Assembly (NCBI GenBank): GCA_049509455.1 | Contig: JBEKZX010000022.1 | Span: 1 to 23,473, forward strand | Source of the DNA: Conexivisphaerales archaeon | GTDB taxonomy: Archaea > Thermoproteota > Nitrososphaeria > Conexivisphaerales > DTJL01 | DNA length: 23,473 bases | Direction: 5' to 3' | Shown here: positions 10,106 to 20,621 of the stretch, in pieces | Layout: each line of letters opens with the position of its first letter | Position numbering within the stretch: the stretch's first letter is position 1 | Notes under the pieces: model-generated | What the model saw: only the letters and a program-made list of their open reading frames with translations | Databases searched by the model: none | Told to the model about the DNA's origin: nothing | Position numbers and translations under genes: made by a program

Positions 10106-10122
10106 TGTCAAACTTTGTTGAC
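10106..10122 (+). promoter_or_regulatory. Candidate operator 1: TGTCAA-ACTTTG-TTGAC
   Basis: Perfect GTCAA-N6-TTGAC inverted repeat in the nac-nrdJ spacer. Confidence 0.5.
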
Positions 10123-10182
10123 TTCGTGCATTGAGGCGCTTTCCAGTGACAAAAGTGTTTCATTATTGAGGAAAAGGCCGTC

Positions 10183-10199
10183 TGTCAATATTGGTTAAC
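10183..10199 (+). promoter_or_regulatory. Candidate operator 2: TGTCAA-TATTGG-TTAAC
   Basis: One mismatch from GTCAA-N6-TTGAC. Shares 13/14 nt with the site at 14886-14899 on the minus strand. Confidence 0.55.
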
Positions 10200-10212
10200 C
10201 AAAAATGCTAAT

Positions 10213-10241
10213 AAAGCCCCACCCCAATTGGTGGCGGCTTT
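10213..10241. promoter_or_regulatory. Inverted repeat overlapping the nrdJ promoter
   Basis: AAAGCCCCACC-CCAATT-GGTGG(C)GGCTTT: an 11-bp stem with one bulge. The right arm runs into TTTTAA at 10239-10244. Confidence 0.45.
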
Positions 10242-10264
10242 TAAGAGGTCAGTGGTTACAGAAC

Positions 10265-12844
10265 ATGGCGGTGCTCTCGTCAAGGATCAAGTCGGTGCGC
10301 AAGCGCGACGGCAGGGTCGTCGCCTATGATAGCAACAAGGTGGCCGAAGCCATATGGAAGGCCATCAAGGCCACTGGCGGGAAAGACAGGTCTACCGCCG
10401 TCGAACTTTCGATCAAGGTCAACGCGATTCTAGAGGAGCGGTTCGGGACGAACGCCGAGCCCTCGGTCGAAGACGTTCAGGACGCAGTCGAGCGTGTGTT
10501 GATTGAAGGAGGGTACGCCAAGACCGCCAAGGCATACATCCTCTACCGGCAGAAGAGGGCCGAAATCCGTGAGGAGAAGATGAAGATCCTCGAGAAGACG
10601 GAGATCGACGAAGTTGACAAGAGCTTTGACAGCAACGCCCTCAAGGTCCTCAGGGCGAGGTATCTTCGGAAGGATGAGAACGGCCACGTCCTAGAGTCGC
10701 CCAAGGAGCTCTTCCTAAGGGTGGCACTTCACACCGCTCTTGCCAGCATCCTCTACGACCCCAAGGTCTTCGACGTCAAGGGCGGACAGCCCCCGAGGGA
10801 AGTCCTGGAGAACGCGGACCTGACGGCCTACAGAGACCTGGCGATAGGAAGGCACAAGCTCAACGAGTTTCACCTCGAGGCCCTCTATCGCGTCTACGGG
10901 CGGTTCGCTGCCTCGGGGAAGGCACGAGTCTCATGGCAGGAGTTGGTGGAGATGATCCGGAGGGGAGATTTCTCTTCGTATGAGAAGGAGGTGGATGACT
11001 ACGTGGCTCTTATGGTCAACAAGAAATTTATGCCGAACACACCAGCCCTGGCCAACTTCGGCAACGTTCTAGGAATGGGCTCGGCTTGCTTCGTCCTAGA
11101 CGTGGCCGACTCCATCGACGACATCATGGAGACGCTGAGGAGCGCGGCCATAATATTCAAGGCCGGCGGAGGGGTCGGTTACAACTTCTCCAAGCTGAGG
11201 CCTGAGGGTGATTTCGTAAAGAGCACTTCCGGCATCGCCTCCGGCCCCGTCAGCTTCATGCGGCTCTTCGACACGATGACCGAAGTGATCAAGCAGGGGG
11301 GAATCAGGCGCGGTGCCAACATGGGCATACTAAACGTCAACCACCCCGACATCGAGAACTTCATCAAGGCCAAGGAGGGGAACAAGGCTCTCAGGAACTT
11401 CAACATCTCTGTCCTCATACTTGATGACTTCTGGGAGTACTACAACCGGAACGAGCCGTATCCGCTGGTGAACCCCAGGACGCATGAGGTCATGCGCTTC
11501 GTCAGCCCCAGGCAGCTCCTGGACATGATCGCGTTCCAAGCCTGGGAGAGCGCCGAGCCCGGTGTGATCTTCTCCGACAAGGTCAACCAGTTTAACCCCT
11601 TCGTTAAGTCGCTGGGGCCCATCGTGACGACCAATCCCTGCGGAGAAGTGCTTCTATATCCGAACGAATCCTGCAACTTGGGCAGCATCAACGTGGCGGC
11701 GTTCGCCAAGGAGGACGACGATGGGAATTTCGTCATGGACTGGGAGGGCCTCAGGGCAACCATTGAGATGACGACGAGGTTCCTCGACAACGTCATCGAC
11801 ATCAACAAGTATCCGCTGCAGGCCATCGAAGACATGACGCTCAAGACCAGGAAGATTGGGCTCGGGGTGATGGGCACGGCCGACCTTTTCTTCGAGCTGG
11901 GCTTGGCCTACAACAGCGAAGAGGGGCTGAAGTTCATGGAGATGCTCATGGAGTTCGTCAACTACTATTCGAAGAAGGCCTCCATCAAGCTCGCTAGGGA
12001 GCGTGGAGTCCTTCCCTCTTTCGAAGAAAGTAGCTACAAGGAAGGTAAGCTGCCCTTTGGTGGCTTCGAAGACCAGGCCTCCTGGCACTTCGACTGGAAG
12101 GAGCTGGCCGAAGAGGTCAAACGCGATGGGTTGAGGAACGGCTACACCACCGTCATCGCCCCGACAGGGAGCATTTCCATGATAGCGGGTTGCAGCAGTG
12201 GTATAGAGCCAGTCTTCGCCTTGGTGTACGAGAAGAACGTCTCCATCGGGAGCTTCTACTATGTCGACGCGGCGTTCGAGAAGGCTATGAAGAAGGATGG
12301 CCTCTTCGACGACGACCTCATGAAGCAGATAGTCACCAGCCATGGCAGTCTAGGGGGCGTTTCCTACCTGCCCGAGAAGATGAAGCGCGTCTTCGTCACT
12401 GCCATGGACATCAACCCGGAGGACCATGTCAGGGCCATCGCGGCCTTCCAGAGGTGGGTCGACTCTAGCATCTCCAAGACGACTAACTTGCCCGTCGACG
12501 CCACCGTTGAGGACGTGAAGAGCATCTACATGCTGGCATACAAGCTGGGATGCAAGGACATCACGGTGTACAGGGACAAATCGATAACTAGCCAGGTTCT
12601 TCGCTCGCCGGCGACAGGGAAGGAGGAGAAGAGCCCGGCGCAGGCCATGCAGAGGACCGGGCCGGCCCCTCTGGCCGTGCAGGCTCCGGCTGTGTCGCCC
12701 CTCCAGACCTTCAACGCCCGCCTGAGCTTGGACGGCAAGAACGGCAGCTTGACTAACTGCCCTTCATGCAACACTAGGCTGGAGTTCAAGGAGGGCTGCG
12801 CTACGTGTCCTGGCTGCGGCTGGAGCCTGTGCGTCAGCGCCTAG
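10265..12844 (+). CDS. nrdJ: Class II (adenosylcobalamin-dependent) ribonucleotide reductase with N-terminal ATP cone
   Basis: ATP cone VRKRDG...KVAEAI. Motifs PNTPALAN, SACFV, RRGANM, TNPCGE, CNLGS, APTGSIS, and C-terminal CPSC...CPGC. No nrdB gene and no C-terminal tyrosine pair. Confidence 0.93.
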   Translation: MAVLSSRIKSVRKRDGRVVAYDSNKVAEAIWKAIKATGGKDRSTAVELSIKVNAILEERFGTNAEPSVEDVQDAVERVLIEGGYAKTAKAYILYRQKRAEIREEKMKILEKTEIDEVDKSFDSNALKVLRARYLRKDENGHVLESPKELFLRVALHTALASILYDPKVFDVKGGQPPREVLENADLTAYRDLAIGRHKLNEFHLEALYRVYGRFAASGKARVSWQELVEMIRRGDFSSYEKEVDDYVALMVNKKFMPNTPALANFGNVLGMGSACFVLDVADSIDDIMETLRSAAIIFKAGGGVGYNFSKLRPEGDFVKSTSGIASGPVSFMRLFDTMTEVIKQGGIRRGANMGILNVNHPDIENFIKAKEGNKALRNFNISVLILDDFWEYYNRNEPYPLVNPRTHEVMRFVSPRQLLDMIAFQAWESAEPGVIFSDKVNQFNPFVKSLGPIVTTNPCGEVLLYPNESCNLGSINVAAFAKEDDDGNFVMDWEGLRATIEMTTRFLDNVIDINKYPLQAIEDMTLKTRKIGLGVMGTADLFFELGLAYNSEEGLKFMEMLMEFVNYYSKKASIKLARERGVLPSFEESSYKEGKLPFGGFEDQASWHFDWKELAEEVKRDGLRNGYTTVIAPTGSISMIAGCSSGIEPVFALVYEKNVSIGSFYYVDAAFEKAMKKDGLFDDDLMKQIVTSHGSLGGVSYLPEKMKRVFVTAMDINPEDHVRAIAAFQRWVDSSISKTTNLPVDATVEDVKSIYMLAYKLGCKDITVYRDKSITSQVLRSPATGKEEKSPAQAMQRTGPAPLAVQAPAVSPLQTFNARLSLDGKNGSLTNCPSCNTRLEFKEGCATCPGCGWSLCVSA

Positions 12845-12846
12845 GT

Positions 12847-14883
12847 CTACTGCAGTGGTGTAGTAGCCCCGCCGCAGACCCCGCAGCGCTCCGTCCCTGC
12901 GACCTCCTTGTTCCCGCATTTCTTGCATGTGACCAGGAGGGGCTGGACCGAGAAGAAGGGGAGCTTCGCGTTCGCCTTCTCGAGGAGCTTAGCGGCGTCG
13001 TTCAGGTCTGAGACCGGAAGCGACAGCCTTGCTAGCACGCCTCCGCCGATTTTCTCGTCCAGCTCGCTCAGCCGCGCTCCAGTGGAATCCGCGTCCAGCT
13101 CCTTGGCATCGATGGAGAAAGCCTGGCTGTAGCGCGACGAGTTAAGGTTCTTCATCTTGGCCCTTCCGAACCTTTCGACGTCCAGCTGGGGGAAGCGGGA
13201 GGCGCTGTCGTCGGTCGTGAGCACCAGAGAGAACTTCTCTTCGCCTTCCTTCCCAGCTGTCTCCAGGTACTGGTTGGCTGCGGCGATCGTCTTCTCCTGC
13301 AGATCCATCAACTCCTTGGTAGACAAATCGGGGCTAACGAGCTTGAGCGAATCCTCCAACCCTGTCAGGTTCACCCTCAGCAGAGGTGACTCGAAGTAAA
13401 GCAGGTTGCTCAAGATGTCCAAGCCCGGAAGGAGACCGTTCTTCACGTTGCTCTGGATTAGATGCCGCCGGACCCGCAAGGCGTTCACGGCATTCTCGAG
13501 CTGCATCGTCACCCGGGCGCGGAAATAGACCTCGTCGTTGTGGGTGTCCAGGGCGACGCGTGGGAGGTTGATGGATATCGAGTCCAAGACGACGGGCCCT
13601 CCCTTCTTGAAGTCGTCGACGCAGAGGCCCTGGAAGGTCCGCCGCTTGCCGCTTCCCTTGGCGAAGGATATCATGCCGTTGTTCCGGGCAATCTCGGCCA
13701 ACGCCTTGTAGGCGGACTTCTCCAGTTTCTCGGAGTTCATGACGGCCAGGCCTATCGACGGTGATGGGGTCGCCTTGACGTAGTCCAAGTAACCCTTCAG
13801 AAGGGAGGCCAGCAGGCCGCCGGAAGCCTTGGTCGCGTCCACTTCCAACTCGACCTTTGGGCGCTCAGCTCCCTCGGGGAAGGCGTAGGCCATCATATAG
13901 AAGAGCGAGGAATAGCCCCTTGAGTCGAAATCGAGCTTCTGGGCCAGGTCAGTGAAGCCGGAGAGGAAGACCTCCCTCCCCGCCTCCCGAGTCAGCAGGT
14001 AGCTGAGGGAGAGGAGCTTCGTGAGCTTCTCCTCGTCAGTGTTTTCGAAGCCCTCCCTGGGCGTATGGGGGAACTTCGCGCCCAGACGTGATAGGGATAG
14101 CGATTGGTCGCTTATGTTGAGGAACAGGGCATCGGGGCGGAGACCCCAGTAGTTGACGTTGGCGATGTGTATGTCGCCCGAAAGGTGGGAGTCCACGACG
14201 TCCCTCGGAAGCTGAATCAGCATCAGGTACTCGGAGAGGACAGAGCCCGCCGTCTGGTTGAACACACCCTCCAGGCCGTAGGGGCCTTCGCCCAGCTTCT
14301 CGAGGTTCTCCGTGACGTCGTAGACGGGCATCCCGAGCCGGCTGAGGCGATGGCGGTACTCCTCCAATCCCTCCTCAATGAGGATCGAATTGACCAGCTC
14401 TCTGATCAGCGGCGCAGTGAGGTATGCCGTCTGGAACTTGTATATCCTAGATTCGGCTTCGCTGGAGACCCTCTGGGCCAACTCGACGGGCATCCCGGCT
14501 TCGGTCACCAGGGAGTGGACGATCTTGTCCGTGGTGAACTCCTCCATGCGGTGACGGGAGCTCCTGACGAAGAGCCTGCCGCTCTCCAAGAGGGCCTGCT
14601 CCTCAATCTGTTTGGCAGCGTTCAGGACCAGGCGGCCCAGCGTAGTGAGCATGTACTTGCGCTCGGCGCGGTTCTGAGCGATCAGGTTCTGCCTGAGGAG
14701 CTTCCTCAGATGGTAGGCAAACTTGCCCGATTCCTTCTTGGACTTGAACCCCGCCAATGTCTTCAGCTCTGAGTATGTCATCGGCCCCTTGGCGTTGAGG
14801 ATCTTCAGTATCTCAAGGCGGCTGGGAGATGCGATGACGGAGAATATCGTCTTGACGCGGCGAACCGAACCCTGAGTGCTCAT
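12847..14883 (-). CDS. wHTH + ATP-cone + class III RNR (NrdD)-like fusion lacking the glycyl-radical loop; putative transcription regulator
   Basis: aa ~10-95 ArsR-like wHTH (SPSRLEILKIL..KGPMTYSEL...SGKFAYHLRKL). aa ~103-182 ATP cone. NrdD landmarks LPRDVVDSHLSGDIHI, SINLPRVAL, SASRF..LDVERFG, GGG, PFFS, CKKC-x10-CGVC. Stop comes 8 aa after the last Cys, with no RxxGY. Confidence 0.85.
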   Translation of the reverse strand: MSTQGSVRRVKTIFSVIASPSRLEILKILNAKGPMTYSELKTLAGFKSKKESGKFAYHLRKLLRQNLIAQNRAERKYMLTTLGRLVLNAAKQIEEQALLESGRLFVRSSRHRMEEFTTDKIVHSLVTEAGMPVELAQRVSSEAESRIYKFQTAYLTAPLIRELVNSILIEEGLEEYRHRLSRLGMPVYDVTENLEKLGEGPYGLEGVFNQTAGSVLSEYLMLIQLPRDVVDSHLSGDIHIANVNYWGLRPDALFLNISDQSLSLSRLGAKFPHTPREGFENTDEEKLTKLLSLSYLLTREAGREVFLSGFTDLAQKLDFDSRGYSSLFYMMAYAFPEGAERPKVELEVDATKASGGLLASLLKGYLDYVKATPSPSIGLAVMNSEKLEKSAYKALAEIARNNGMISFAKGSGKRRTFQGLCVDDFKKGGPVVLDSISINLPRVALDTHNDEVYFRARVTMQLENAVNALRVRRHLIQSNVKNGLLPGLDILSNLLYFESPLLRVNLTGLEDSLKLVSPDLSTKELMDLQEKTIAAANQYLETAGKEGEEKFSLVLTTDDSASRFPQLDVERFGRAKMKNLNSSRYSQAFSIDAKELDADSTGARLSELDEKIGGGVLARLSLPVSDLNDAAKLLEKANAKLPFFSVQPLLVTCKKCGNKEVAGTERCGVCGGATTPLQ

Positions 14884-14899
14884 AGAACCACTATTGACA
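14883..14899 (-). promoter_or_regulatory. Candidate operator 3: TGTCAA-TAGTGG-TTCTA over the fusion gene's predicted TSS and start
   Basis: Minus strand reads TGTCAATAGTGGTTCTATG. A TATA-like TTTTTAGA lies at 14925-14918. Confidence 0.5.
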
Positions 14900-14956
14900 T
14901 CACTTGCTACATCTAGGTCTAAAAAGGTTTACCACGCGGTGGATGGACATGAAAGT

Positions 14957-15034
14957 TGGTGGGGCCGGGCGGATTTGAACCGCCGATCACCAGCGCCCGA
15001 GGCTGGTAGCGTAACCAAGCTAGCCCACGGCCCC
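14957..15034 (-). tRNA. tRNA-Pro(CGG), intronless, CCA encoded
   Basis: Hand-folded 78-nt cloverleaf: acceptor GGGGCCG/CGGCCCC, anticodon arm CCAGC-CTCGGGC-GCTGG, T arm GGCGG-TTCAAAT-CCGCC, 3' ACCA. Confidence 0.97.
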
Positions 15035-15160: not shown

Positions 15161-16255
15161 ATGAAGGTCGTAGCCACGGGAATCAGCGGCGCGGGTCGAG
15201 GCTCTTACCTTTCACAGGTGGAGGCCCTCGCGCGGAAGGATGGCAGGCGCGTCAGGATCTTCGAAACGGGCGACATGATGTTCGAGACCGGGAGGAAGCT
15301 GGGCATCGACATCCCTGAGGACAAGATACTGGACCTGTCGCCGTCCACACTGAACTTCCTCAGGACCACCGTGTTCGAGCAGATAATCCGCGAATCCAAG
15401 GAGGTAGACGATGCAATAATCAGCACTCACGCATGCTTCCGATGGAAGAAGCACATAATCCAGGCCTTCGATTTCCACTACCTCGATCAGATTCGCCCTG
15501 ACATCTACGTCTCCATCATCGACTCCATTACCTCGGTCAGGGCGCGTCAAGAGGCTCAGCCGCAATGGAGAGGGCAGCTCTCCATGAAGGACATCTTGGT
15601 GTGGAGGGACGAGGAGGTCTTCGTGACGAAGTCCATCGCGGACTTTCAGAGGAGGCCGTTCTACGTTGTCCCCAGCGACGAGCCGCCGGAGACCCTCTTC
15701 AGGCTGCTCTACAGGCCGGGGACAGCGAAGGCGTACCTGAGTTACCCGATGACCCATACGGGGACCGAAGGAGATGACGTAAGGAAGAAGGACGCCTTCA
15801 GAGAGCGCTTGCGCAGGACGGGGATGATCGTGTTCGACCCCGTTGCCATAGGAGATGCTGAACTCCTTGCCTTCCTGGCCGATGCCAGGAAGAGGGGAGA
15901 TGGTAAGGTCACCTATTCCAAGAGAGGGGTGGACGTGTCGTTCGACGTTAAGGAGGCCGAAGAAGTCGCCGATGACGTGAACGACCAAATCGTCGCTAGG
16001 GACTATCAGCTTATCGACCAGAGCGACATGATAGTAGTCTATTACTTCCTCCCGGTGATGTCGCCTGGGGTTCTCTCGGAGATGACCTATGGCTTCACGA
16101 ACAAGAAGAACGTATACGCCATCTTCAAGGGGCCGGAGTCGCCATTCTTCAAGTACTATTCGACCAAGATATTCCAGGACGAGGATGCCCTGCTGGGCTA
16201 TCTGAAGGAGAAGGCGGGAGGACCAGTGGGCGGCTCACAGAGGAAGGAGAGCTAG
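15161..16255 (+). CDS. Fusion of an archaeal adenylate-kinase-like P-loop domain and a nucleoside 2'-deoxyribosyltransferase/DNPH1-like domain
   Basis: N-terminus VVATGISGAGRGS and ISTH resemble AdkA (GVPGVG, DTH). C-terminus YLSYPMT, VFDP, RDYQLIDQSD, SPGVLSE. Confidence 0.75.
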   Translation: MKVVATGISGAGRGSYLSQVEALARKDGRRVRIFETGDMMFETGRKLGIDIPEDKILDLSPSTLNFLRTTVFEQIIRESKEVDDAIISTHACFRWKKHIIQAFDFHYLDQIRPDIYVSIIDSITSVRARQEAQPQWRGQLSMKDILVWRDEEVFVTKSIADFQRRPFYVVPSDEPPETLFRLLYRPGTAKAYLSYPMTHTGTEGDDVRKKDAFRERLRRTGMIVFDPVAIGDAELLAFLADARKRGDGKVTYSKRGVDVSFDVKEAEEVADDVNDQIVARDYQLIDQSDMIVVYYFLPVMSPGVLSEMTYGFTNKKNVYAIFKGPESPFFKYYSTKIFQDEDALLGYLKEKAGGPVGGSQRKES

Positions 16256-16687
16256 GTGAAGACGTCGATCTTCGTCGGAGGGCTGCTGATGCTTGACGGA
16301 AGAATGTTGCTCAAGTCGGAAGGGGAAGCTACCCAATTATGGTACCGCACGCCTGGCAAGTACCTTGAAGGGGACGAGACCCTAGAGATGGCGGTATCAA
16401 GAGGCTTCAAGGAGGACACGGGGTGGATGTGCGCGGTGAAAGACCTGTCCTATGTCATCGAATCGTTCAAGGGCGACGGGGAGAGGGACCTGGGGCTCTA
16501 TTTCCTGGTCAGCGTGCCATCGGCTAAGGCACGAGAGGGCCTCAGAAGCCGGCTGTCCTTCGTCCCGATGGAGGAGATGATAGAGATGGACGTGCGACCC
16601 GCGGTCTTGGCCGGAAAGGTCTTCGCAGACGAGAAGAGAGGCGCGAGAGGGTCCGCCACCTACCTGGTCAACTACAGGGAGTTCTGA
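16256..16687 (+). CDS. NUDIX-fold protein with degenerate Nudix box
   Basis: PGKYLEGDETLEMAVSRGFKEDTGW versus the consensus GX5EX7REUXEEXGU. The GTG start directly abuts the upstream stop. Confidence 0.75.
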   Translation: MKTSIFVGGLLMLDGRMLLKSEGEATQLWYRTPGKYLEGDETLEMAVSRGFKEDTGWMCAVKDLSYVIESFKGDGERDLGLYFLVSVPSAKAREGLRSRLSFVPMEEMIEMDVRPAVLAGKVFADEKRGARGSATYLVNYREF

Positions 16688-18584: not shown

Positions 18585-20621
18585 CTATCTCTTGCTGGCG
18601 AGCTCGTCTTGGTGGACGGGGGTGTTCCTCAGGCGCTTACCGATGGCCTTCTCCAGCGCCCTGATGACCGCCGGCGGCAGGCCGGTCGTTGCTGCCTCCC
18701 CGACCCCTTTGATGTTGACGTTCTCCAAATCCAGATGTTTCGCTAACTTCACCACGACCGGAGGGATAGATGACGCCAGAGGGAGGCCCGTGTCGGCTAT
18801 GGTTCCGGTGAGCAGCTGCCCGTCCTCGTCATACCAAGACTGTTCTGACAGCGCCTGTCCTATGCCCTGAGCCGAGGCTCCGATGACTTGGGCTATGGCG
18901 TTTTCCCTGTCGAGCACCCTGCCTATGTCGTAGTAGGCCAGGCATTCCTCCACCTTGGTCTCACCTGTCTCGTTCACGGAGACTCTGACGAAGTTGGCCC
19001 CCAGAGAGCTGACGGATTCGCGCATATAATGGAACACTCTGACGTCGAAGTCATGACAGAGAATTTCTTCGGGTGACGTGGCTCCCAGCTTCTTCGCTTC
19101 CTCCTTTATCTTCCCTGCAGCCTCGACCAGCGCGGCGCCGACCACTATCGCTGTCCGGCTACCCCACGTTCCCACTCCCTCGTCCAGCTCGTCCGTGTCG
19201 CCGGGCTGCAACTTCACCACCGATTCCGGGAATCCCAATTCGCGCTTCAATACGTTCCTTGCTATCCCTTCATGGCGCTGCCCACTTTGGCCCCCTCCAA
19301 TCCAGACGCTGACGGCGCCATCCTTGATGGATATTCTGGCTGACTCGCCGGGCTGCACCGCCGACGGCATGATGAAACAGGAGAAGCCAGTCGCCTTCTC
19401 GTTCCTCCTGTTCCAGTACCCCAGCTGATCGGCAGCCGTCCTGAGGAACGGCTCGAATGGGTCGACCTTCAGGCCGAGAGGGGAGACGAATCGTTTCGGG
19501 CTAGCGTTCCTGAGCCTTATTTCGACAGGATCCTGCTTGAGCTCATCCGCCAGGAGATCCATCATCCTCTCTATGAAGAAGGCAGCCTCCGGCCTCCCGG
19601 CGCCCCTGTAGGGCCCCAATGGGACCTTGTTCGTGTAGACCGAAGCGGATGTGATGAACGCCTTCTTGATCGAGTAGGGGCCGGTGAGGAGAAACCCGAT
19701 GAACATTGGCGCAGACGATCCGATGCCGACGGCGAACGCTCCGTTGTCGATGAGGAGGTCCGCCTTCAGGCCGCTGACGTGCCCTTCCCTGTCAGAGAAT
19801 ATCCGCATCCTTGCTCGCGCTCCCCTCCCCTGGCACGTCGCGAGAAGATGCTCTGACCTAGTCTCCACCCATTTTACGGGCTTCCGCGTCTTCATTGAAG
19901 CGTAGCAGGCTACGGCGTATTCTGGATATAGAGAGCTCTTGGCACCGAAGGCGCCTCCGGTGTCCATCTGGATGACCCTCACCTTCTCCTTGGGGAGTTG
20001 CATTATGTCGCTGATGGCCTCCTGCCATGTATGGACGGACTGGGTCGAAGCCCACACGGTTAGCTTGGAGCCGTCATAGTGCGCCACCAAGCCACGGGGT
20101 TCCATCGGGTTAGGGGATATTCTGGCGTTGGCCAATTCGTCCTCAAGGACGATGGGGGAATCGTCAGTGAAGTCTTCGCCCAGCTGGACGGCGTTTACGA
20201 TGTTGGACTTGATGCCAGGATGGATGGGTTCGAATGCGCTGGCCTCCTCCGGGTTAATGAGGGGCTTCATCGGCTCATAGTCGACCTCCACCTGCTCTAG
20301 GAGGTCCTCTGCCTCGTACACGTCCTTCCCCAAGACGCCAGCCACCGGCTGGCCCGCATAGCTGACGTATTCCTTCGGGAGGGCGGGATATGCGACGGAT
20401 ACAGGCCCTCCCCAGGCGCCTTCGCCGACCGAAACCAAGTTGGCCTTGAACTCTGATGCCGTTATGCCCCCTTTCACCTTCAGGATTCGCGCCCTAGCAT
20501 AGGGGCTCCGCACCATCTTGAGGTGCAGCATCTCCTCCATCTTCAGGTCGTCGACGAACCTCCCCCTCCCCGACAGGAACCTGTCAGAGTCTTTCATGTC
20601 AAATGTAGCTCTCCCTTGCAT
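18585..20621 (-). CDS. Xanthine dehydrogenase/CoxL(CutA)-family molybdopterin-binding large subunit
   Basis: RFLSGRGRFVDD, PMEPRG, GGAFGAK, PYRGAGRPE, GTWGSR, KGVGE. Start at 20621 or 20597. Confidence 0.92.
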   Translation of the reverse strand: MQGRATFDMKDSDRFLSGRGRFVDDLKMEEMLHLKMVRSPYARARILKVKGGITASEFKANLVSVGEGAWGGPVSVAYPALPKEYVSYAGQPVAGVLGKDVYEAEDLLEQVEVDYEPMKPLINPEEASAFEPIHPGIKSNIVNAVQLGEDFTDDSPIVLEDELANARISPNPMEPRGLVAHYDGSKLTVWASTQSVHTWQEAISDIMQLPKEKVRVIQMDTGGAFGAKSSLYPEYAVACYASMKTRKPVKWVETRSEHLLATCQGRGARARMRIFSDREGHVSGLKADLLIDNGAFAVGIGSSAPMFIGFLLTGPYSIKKAFITSASVYTNKVPLGPYRGAGRPEAAFFIERMMDLLADELKQDPVEIRLRNASPKRFVSPLGLKVDPFEPFLRTAADQLGYWNRRNEKATGFSCFIMPSAVQPGESARISIKDGAVSVWIGGGQSGQRHEGIARNVLKRELGFPESVVKLQPGDTDELDEGVGTWGSRTAIVVGAALVEAAGKIKEEAKKLGATSPEEILCHDFDVRVFHYMRESVSSLGANFVRVSVNETGETKVEECLAYYDIGRVLDRENAIAQVIGASAQGIGQALSEQSWYDEDGQLLTGTIADTGLPLASSIPPVVVKLAKHLDLENVNIKGVGEAATTGLPPAVIRALEKAIGKRLRNTPVHQDELASKR

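Follow-up and report, generated by a model that had tools for sequence, protein, structure and literature searches.

The 23,473-nucleotide (nt) stretch of contig JBEKZX010000022.1 from a Conexivisphaerales archaeon (hereafter, the window) carries an open reading frame (ORF), given the working name nrdX, whose product is very probably a non-enzymatic, DNA-binding pseudoenzyme derived from NrdD, the anaerobic ribonucleotide reductase (RNR). All elements of radical chemistry have been lost from this system, since both active-site cysteines, the glycyl-radical loop, and the activase are absent. The role that we favor, with reasonable rather than high confidence, is that of a non-catalytic, probably dimeric, nucleotide-responsive transcription factor for the adjacent gene nrdJ, making NrdX an analogue, but not a homologue, of the bacterial repressor NrdR. 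Indirectly, regulation of nrdJ fits the facts that the recognition helix is invariant, that nrdX is syntenic with RNR genes, and that a palindrome upstream of nrdJ is missing where nrdX is missing.

The interval from 12847 to 14883 corresponds to exactly one ORF on the minus strand, and its parts are as follows.

12847 to 14883, minus strand: nrdX, encoding a winged helix-turn-helix (wHTH), an ATP-cone, an NrdD-like core, and a zinc ribbon; 678 amino acids (aa) plus stop.
14599 to 14850, minus strand: ArsR-type wHTH, aa 12 to 95 (Pfam HTH_20 and DUF7347, invariant columns, model topology, and Foldseek).
14344 to 14580, minus strand: ATP-cone, aa 102 to 180 (Pfam, model confidence, Foldseek matches to NrdR cones, and motif comparison).
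12949 to 14316, minus strand: NrdD-like dimerization helices and alpha/beta barrel, aa 190 to 645 (alignments, Foldseek, and predicted homodimer).
12850 to 12948, minus strand: C-terminal zinc ribbon, aa 646 to 678, with C653, C656, C667, and C670 (conserved Cys columns and the protein end).

An earlier note on this DNA had proposed this four-part order, with a stop codon in place of the RxxGY glycyl-radical loop, and Pfam, hhalign, and Foldseek all uphold it. Pfam placed HTH_20 (E value of 4e-8) and DUF7347 (E value of 7e-11) at aa 12 to 89, the ATP-cone at aa 105 to 176, and NRDD at aa 426 to 671, the last corresponding to profile positions 272 to 528 of 562. In profile-profile alignment, aa 102 to 678 of NrdX matched residues 1 to 676 of Escherichia coli NrdD, stopping short of the RRVCGY radical loop. 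The NrdX family and a canonical profile of 11 NrdDs (that of E. coli and ten from other Thermoproteota) were aligned by hhalign over 560 columns with a probability of 100% and an E value of 2e-66. Furthermore, an AlphaFold2 model built from 41 homologues had a predicted local distance difference test score (pLDDT) of 76, mostly above 85 in the barrel, and its best Foldseek matches were NrdDs, namely, those of T. maritima (4u3e/4coi), S. thermophilus (9dau), and phage T4 (1h7b), with E values of about 1e-17. The core is thus a complete NrdD fold.

The residues of radical catalysis were followed through 120 close homologues. Their sole conserved cysteines are the four zinc ligands, which are invariant in all 120 and have 10 residues between the two pairs. 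NrdX ends 8 residues past C670, and the homologues end 4 to 17 residues past the last cysteine, mostly 8 to 12. The column of the second active-site cysteine, E. coli C175, holds A252 in NrdX and threonine in 96 of the 120; the sequence at aa 238 to 251 reads HIANVNYWGLRPDA, in agreement with the earlier claim that the region corresponding to HIHD...NC has no cysteine. The finger-loop claim fared differently. The note had located this loop at QGLCV, with a cysteine, C421, offset by one, but the column of the thiyl cysteine (C384 in E. coli, C290 in T4) is occupied by R414, and by R or K in 98 of the 120. C421 was ruled out as a displaced catalytic cysteine, most homologues having N, S, or R there. 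In addition, the HxHD motif is worn down to H-I-(S/T/A)-(N/E/D) across the family, and other residues replace the asparagines of the NxN flap; in P. copri NrdD, both of these elements touch the substrate (PMC11226230). The note had allowed that homologues might retain RxxGY, in which case this copy would be merely truncated; an RxxG[YF] motif was found in none of the 120, and 15 longer relatives, described below, have degenerate tails. Against the NCBIfam NrdD equivalog TIGR02487, NrdX scored 56.1 bits, the cut-off being 326.35, and it fell likewise far under the cut-offs of the other NrdD equivalogs.

The surrounding genome is consistent with this loss. The absence of nrdG from the window, pointed out in the note, extends to the source genome (2.05 Mb, 95.5% complete), where the best match to TIGR02491 reached 21.5 bits (cut-off, 126), and to the class Nitrososphaeria, in which none of 201 genomes contains NrdG at the cut-off. 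Weak radical-SAM matches of 240 to 250 aa in class genomes probably represent another family. The source genome yielded no second NRDD-family gene and no match to NrdR (TIGR00244), and its only ATP-cones are those of nrdJ and nrdX.

It might be supposed that NrdX is still an enzyme, with nucleotide chemistry of another kind or another radical source, joined to a DNA-binding domain as a trigger enzyme. This would be in line with the full length of the barrel and with the zinc site and the motifs GDIH and NLPR (N439, P441, and R442), all kept in 117 to 120 of the 120 homologues; we read the two motifs as structural. Both cysteines, the glycine loop, HxHD, and the NxN flap are gone, the barrel is the least conserved part (29 to 38% identity), no activase was found at the cut-off, and the hosts, going by organism names, are mostly aerobic ammonia oxidizers, so that persisting enzymatic function is regarded as very improbable.

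The distribution of nrdX bears on a simpler possibility, that of a truncated, decaying nrdD pseudogene fused by chance to an upstream HTH gene. The loss of the C-terminal radical domain and of the catalytic residues is what such decay would give. The nrdX family profile, however, matched 185 of the 201 class genomes, including 160 of the 161 of high quality, usually with a single match each, and all genomes of the two largest class families (115 of 115 and 14 of 14). These tallies, like that of NrdG, include one genome flagged as unpublished, G131, whose locus L021 was left out of the sequence analyses. By source names, the largest families lie among Nitrososphaerales/Thaumarchaeota, and the closest relatives are in Conexivisphaerales. 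Moreover, hundreds of genomes carry an intact frame of equal length, 107 columns are invariant in 41 sequences of about 40% identity, and the barrel is modeled confidently. The pseudogene explanation is refuted because nrdX is conserved, and we consider it almost certainly wrong.

Beyond the class, the same profile (E values up to 1e-40, wHTH included) recovered the architecture in 129 of 201 genomes phylum-wide. Most copies outside Nitrososphaeria are 740 to 823 aa long and match the NrdD model nearly to its end. Among 15 of these long forms from other classes, the tail can still be recognized as the radical loop, but 12 have A, N, T, D, S, or P in place of the radical glycine, so that the canonical tail YSRITGYYQDV corresponds to sequences such as YSRSSAKYLPL and YGRPTARYTPL. 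The remaining three, L089, L091, and L096, keep a glycine at or beside the radical position (ARQDGRY, YVKIGASY, and TKVFGKI) without the following tyrosine. Both catalytic cysteine positions are gone in all long forms but one, L094, which keeps a finger-loop TGCRF; these four proteins may have decayed least and could help to date the loss. Short forms of 538 to 662 aa also occur in other classes (L099 to L102 and L105), with the wHTH and ATP-cone present and the NrdD part reduced or barely detectable; L101 has neither a Pfam NRDD match nor a zinc ribbon at its end.

In a quick, unrooted maximum-likelihood tree, the canonical NrdDs made up one side (support, 92), and a paraphyletic grade of long forms led to the Nitrososphaeria proteins, which formed a tip clade (support, 100). 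The tree is consistent with one event of fusion and inactivation and a later loss of the tail; the order of events is not claimed, because the tree is quick and unrooted. Nor is a particular canonical NrdD subclade claimed as donor, a linker motif shared with L052-type NrdDs being only a hint. In one ammonia oxidizer, a stand-alone 78-aa ORF matching only the wHTH (E value of 5e-47; G008:C1:1091148-1091387) lies about 6.6 kb from a full-length nrdX and may be a duplicated DNA-binding domain.

Within the family, sequence constraint centers on the wHTH and the ATP-cone and not on the barrel. Mean pairwise identity was 0.83 for the wHTH, 0.78 for the ATP-cone, 0.60 for the helices after the cone, 0.29 and 0.38 for the two barrel halves, and 0.36 for the zinc ribbon, the reverse of the trend in canonical NrdDs (cone, 0.38; barrel, 0.43 to 0.44). 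Eighteen residues, G45 to L62, which include the recognition helix, are invariant in the 41 homologues. A model of aa 1 to 190 showed the classical wHTH topology (helices 22 to 32, 37 to 44, and 49 to 65, strands 68 to 71 and 76 to 79, and helix 81 to 100); the Foldseek matches of this domain were YodB, NolR, SmtB, and ArsR at 18 to 26% identity, and an HTH_5 match was found in NrdX relatives.

The ATP-cone was modeled with a pLDDT of 80 to 94, and its best Foldseek matches were NrdR ATP-cones (9a6n, 9fxk, and 7p37; root mean square deviation, 2.4 to 2.9 Å). The YRH...R signature of the last cone helix is kept. The hairpin reads V-R-(S/T)-S-R in the family (V-R-S-S-R in NrdX), as against V-x-K-R-D-G in characterized cones and V-R-R-S-D-G in the closest canonical archaeal NrdDs. 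Because the hairpin differs from V-x-K-R-D-G, nucleotide binding by the cone is plausible but unproven. Reading of deoxynucleoside triphosphates (dNTPs) through a retained substrate site, another earlier suggestion, is unlikely and found no support, HxHD, the NxN flap, and both cysteines being degraded; only 5 of 165 columns are invariant in the barrel half expected to house the specificity site, the least conserved region.

The cone also invites an explanation at the protein level, in which the dead core or the ATP-cone would hetero-oligomerize with NrdJ and modulate its activity, the wHTH being auxiliary. ATP-cones drive oligomerization in RNRs and in NrdR (PMC9110341, PMC11226230), both NrdX and NrdJ have one, and that of NrdX is unusually conserved, at 78% identity. 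The most conserved module is nevertheless the wHTH (83%, with its invariant recognition helix), which suggests that NrdX partners with DNA; NrdJ is of a different RNR class and has another kind of dimer contact, and relatives in other classes adjoin NrdD as well as NrdJ, so that no single partner is conserved. Direct control of NrdJ is accordingly judged improbable.

For a regulator of transcription, a dimer would suit an operator with two half-sites. Two copies of aa 190 to 678 were predicted to form a symmetric dimer with an ipSAE of 0.83, compared with 0.00 for the best of three controls; the runs agreed in at least 98% of contacts, and the partner pLDDT was at least 86. The ipSAE mark used is attained by 20 of 30 proteins solved as same-chain pairs and by 1 of 23 solved as single chains, and the pass may mirror likeness to solved NrdD dimers in the PDB and not binding.

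The presumed target lies next to nrdX, together with several candidate regulatory elements.

10265 to 12844, plus strand: nrdJ, encoding a B12-dependent class II RNR with its own canonical ATP-cone (TIGR02504); presumed target.
10107 to 10122, no strand assigned: perfect palindrome GTCAA-N6-TTGAC, candidate operator (conservation and co-occurrence with nrdX).
10183 to 10194, plus strand: proximal TGTCAATATTGG, weak candidate for a second site (matches the nrdX-promoter element at 11 of 12 bases).
10238 to 10245, plus strand: predicted TATA-like box CTTTTAAG of nrdJ (conserved block GGCGGCTTTTAAGAGG).
14917 to 14932, minus strand: nrdX promoter element GTAAACCTTTTTAGAC, 34 to 49 nt before the ATG (family-wide).
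14888 to 14899, minus strand: TGTCAATAGTGG, possible autoregulatory site (four closest genomes; weak).

The adjacent nrdJ had been described as intact, and its score of 715 bits against TIGR02504 (cut-off, 400) confirms this. The two genes are convergent, and 2 nt separate their stop codons. An ATG at 10205 begins the nrdJ ORF but was rejected as the start because it is not conserved: the same codon is ACG or ACA in close relatives, one of which has an in-frame stop. Translation probably begins at the ATG at 10265 (MAVLSSRIKSVRKRDG...), 20 nt past the conserved CTTTTAAG, which would be a leaderless-type arrangement; automatic annotation from 10205 would give nrdJ 20 spurious residues. The GGCGGCTTTTAAGAGG block is conserved in close relatives.

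The association of nrdX with RNR genes is strong in the class and occasional elsewhere. In 17 of 18 loci from six class families, nrdX adjoins nrdJ; the pair is convergent in the window's family, and in the others nrdX lies directly upstream and co-directional. Among 20 loci from other classes, a canonical nrdD is directly downstream of nrdX in two and nrdJ in one. At one such locus, that of L094 (G323:C16), the dead and the canonical nrdD are separated by a small glutaredoxin/NrdH-like ORF containing a CPRC motif, recognized from the intergenic sequence alone.

The palindrome at 10107 to 10122 begins 27 nt past the stop codon of the NAC gene that precedes it. Of the eight loci in the window's family, seven have it, five perfectly and two with one mismatch, with spacer and flanks varying. 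In a broader comparison, a palindrome with a spacer of 5 to 7 nt and at most one mismatch was present upstream of nrdJ in 11 of 18 loci, compared with about 5% of control windows. Among ammonia oxidizers, the N5 version occurred in 19 of 33 distinct nrdX-nrdJ spacers, always 106 to 124 nt before the nrdJ alignment start, and in 8 of 225 control windows of equal length. All 17 searched class genomes that lack nrdX have nrdJ; of their nrdJ upstream regions, 14 were examined, and none had the palindrome or any match with fewer than 2 mismatches. In the source genome, it is the sole intergenic perfect copy, the other two lying in long open frames. No genome-wide regulon could be defined from it, given that the number of copies is close to chance and that two are inside such frames.

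Between the palindrome and the TATA-like box (10123 to 10237), the short blocks TGCnTTGAGG, GTTTCA, and AACCAAAAAnnCTAATAAA are kept among four genomes in which other intergenic DNA has diverged. They had no Rfam match, and the conserved 170-nt nrdJ leader does not correspond to any known riboswitch, since Rfam returned only the tRNA between 9800 and 15300.

The earlier suggestion that the protein controls both nrdJ and itself is supported in its first part, with which the palindrome, the synteny, and the invariant recognition helix are consistent, and weakly, within one clade, in its second. At the nrdX promoter, GTAAACCTTTTTAGAC is a TATA box inside an imperfect palindrome, 11 of whose 16 positions agree with the nrdJ palindrome; it was present with 0 to 2 mismatches in all eight family loci, compared with 0 to 3% of control windows, and may be no more than a B recognition element (BRE) plus TATA box. 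Between this TATA box and the nrdX ATG, near the expected transcription start, TGTCAATAGTGG resembles TGTCAATATTGG, the TTGTCAA core of which is conserved in the four closest genomes. Autoregulation is weakly supported, because TGTCAATAGTGG and TGTCAATATTGG are conserved only in those four genomes, where the whole promoter is conserved. The 16-bp GTAAA..TAGAC element, conserved in the window's family, was rejected as a phylum-wide nrdX operator, since its matches outside the family are scattered; it may represent a TATA box and nothing more.

Several observations weigh against an nrdJ-directed, nucleotide-responsive transcription factor. On the protein side, the wHTH was modeled with only moderate confidence (pLDDT, 53 to 62), the Pfam score of the ATP-cone is borderline (25.3 bits on the protein, with a cut-off of 25.8, and 28.5 bits in the genome scan), and the K-R pair with which characterized cones grip the triphosphate is replaced by (S/T)-S, flanked by R107 and R110. 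On the DNA side, three perfect copies of the palindrome genome-wide represent about the chance number, with no enrichment; the element precedes the predicted nrdJ TATA box by about 125 nt here and by about 65 to 75 nt in ammonia oxidizers, so that, unlike NrdR boxes, it does not overlap the core promoter, and a mechanism of simple promoter occlusion is not suggested by its position. The compared loci are related and the nrdX-less genomes come from few lineages, so the co-occurrence counts overstate independence. In the remaining 17 of the 20 loci from other classes, no RNR gene lies within about 6 kb, and no motif shared by nrdX promoters was found outside the class.

Some of these observations would suit a DNA-binding nucleotide sensor whose main target is not nrdJ and which instead serves another regulon or couples nucleotide supply to replication, repair, or chromatin, the palindrome belonging to another factor. 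Such a protein need not be tied to RNR genes (a neighbor in only 3 of the 20 loci outside the class), its gene need not be upstream of nrdJ (the two are convergent in the window), and neither the distance of the palindrome from the core promoter nor the lack of a motif common to nrdX promoters across clades would be surprising. It would leave unexplained why nrdJ is the neighbor in 17 of 18 class loci despite the change in orientation, why two loci of other classes have nrdX immediately before a canonical nrdD, and why the palindrome stands upstream of nrdJ only where nrdX is present, as the sole intergenic perfect copy. We therefore consider a different main target rather unlikely, though a possibility of some weight.

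If NrdX does regulate nrdJ, the NrdD-like core would dimerize and offer two winged helices to the half-sites of GTCAA-N5/6-TTGAC. Uptake of ATP, dATP, or a related nucleotide by the ATP-cone would shift DNA binding or the oligomeric state, and, in the manner of bacterial NrdR control, nrdJ transcription would then track the nucleotide pool. The position of the palindrome upstream of the predicted nrdJ TATA box would be more typical of archaeal activators, and that of the related element over the nrdX TATA box would be typical of repression.

A broader evolutionary account, which we consider about evenly balanced between right and wrong, is that on a single occasion, early in the history of Thermoproteota, a whole RNR became a transcription factor devoted to RNR genes. 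A winged helix would have been gained, the ATP-cone kept as sensor, and the radical apparatus lost stepwise, by way of a degenerate glycine tail in Bathyarchaeia-like lineages and full deletion in Nitrososphaeria. The product would be the missing functional counterpart of NrdR in archaea, a core gene of all ammonia-oxidizing archaea, and perhaps an activator working from an upstream palindrome and not a repressor. For bacteria, where NrdR operates, the regulation of dNTP synthesis is well understood. In the literature searched, which excluded most subscription journals, no wHTH-NrdD-like protein and no archaeal RNR regulator of this kind was described. NrdR is rare in archaea (PMC9110341). NrdX is near-universal in Nitrososphaeria, including the globally abundant ammonia-oxidizing archaea, and widespread in other Thermoproteota. 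If the proposal is true, a gap in archaeal RNR regulation is filled by a simple system of one protein, one palindrome, and one target gene, and an entire radical enzyme has clearly been put to new use as a transcription factor, of which intermediate forms survive. Databases name these proteins either "anaerobic ribonucleoside-triphosphate reductase", the label that had been predicted for automatic annotation, or "ArsR family transcriptional regulator"; the former can prompt a wrong inference of anaerobic capacity in aerobic nitrifiers.

On the other side of nrdX lie the following neighbors.

14957 to 15034, minus strand: tRNA-Pro(CGG), directly upstream of nrdX and not part of the proposed system.

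The position of this tRNA gene is kept in the closest relatives, and the 73-nt gap between it and the ATG holds the nrdX promoter. Divergent from nrdX, at 15161 to 16687 on the plus strand, lies a gene for a 364-aa fusion of an AAA_17 nucleoside/nucleotide kinase-like part and a nucleoside 2-deoxyribosyltransferase-like part, and a gene for a 143-aa Nudix protein follows directly. The two are kept beside nrdX in the three closest genomes and not in more distant family members; a deoxynucleotide salvage or sanitation pair is possible. An unrelated ORF at 18585 to 20621 on the minus strand, similar to molybdopterin-binding aldehyde oxidoreductase/glyceraldehyde dehydrogenase alpha subunits, also encodes exactly 678 aa, a coincidence of length.

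Among known systems, NrdX resembles NrdR, the RNR-specific repressor of bacteria, in combining a DNA-binding module with an ATP-cone, in its tie to RNR genes, and in the palindrome upstream of an nrd gene; its cone model is structurally closest to NrdR cones, and the logic proposed is the same, the nucleotide pool setting RNR transcription. The two proteins are not homologous as wholes. NrdR has about 150 aa, comprising an N-terminal zinc ribbon and an ATP-cone, and binds DNA through the zinc ribbon, whereas NrdX presumably does so through its ArsR-type wHTH, its sole zinc ribbon being the C-terminal structural site of NrdD. NrdR has no counterpart to the 490-aa dead NrdD core, and the NrdX cone lacks the K-R motif. 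Furthermore, the DNA sites of NrdR are two 16-bp boxes that overlie the promoter (PMC9110341, PMC13584703), whereas the candidate NrdX site is a single palindrome of 15 to 16 bp upstream of the TATA box.

With NrdD itself, NrdX shares the core fold and its order of ATP-cone, helices, 10-stranded barrel, and CxxC...CxxC zinc site, a predicted NrdD-like homodimer, and, with one archaeal NrdD subgroup (L052 to L056), the linker TR-[LV]-G-x-P-x-YD. It differs in lacking the thiyl cysteine, the second cysteine, the glycyl-radical loop, and an activase, in its degraded HxHD and NxN elements, in the added N-terminal wHTH, and in scoring far below every NCBIfam NrdD cut-off.

A parallel in construction is offered by the MocR/GabR regulators, in which a wHTH is joined to a full-size, inactive aminotransferase-fold domain that serves as a scaffold for dimerization and ligand sensing and controls genes of the ancestral enzyme's pathway. 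MocR proteins differ in that they are bacterial, with a PLP (pyridoxal phosphate) fold type I domain, a GntR-type wHTH, and no separate ATP-cone sensor. Finally, the N-terminal 95 aa of NrdX match HTH_20/HTH_5 and superpose on the ArsR/SmtB-type proteins YodB, NolR, SmtB, and ArsR. With the NCBIfam metalloregulator model NF033788, however, NrdX scored 28.3 bits (cut-off, 55); it has a basic insertion of 8 residues, KSKKESGK, ahead of the recognition helix, is seven times larger than these regulators, and is presumed to sense a nucleotide and not a metal.

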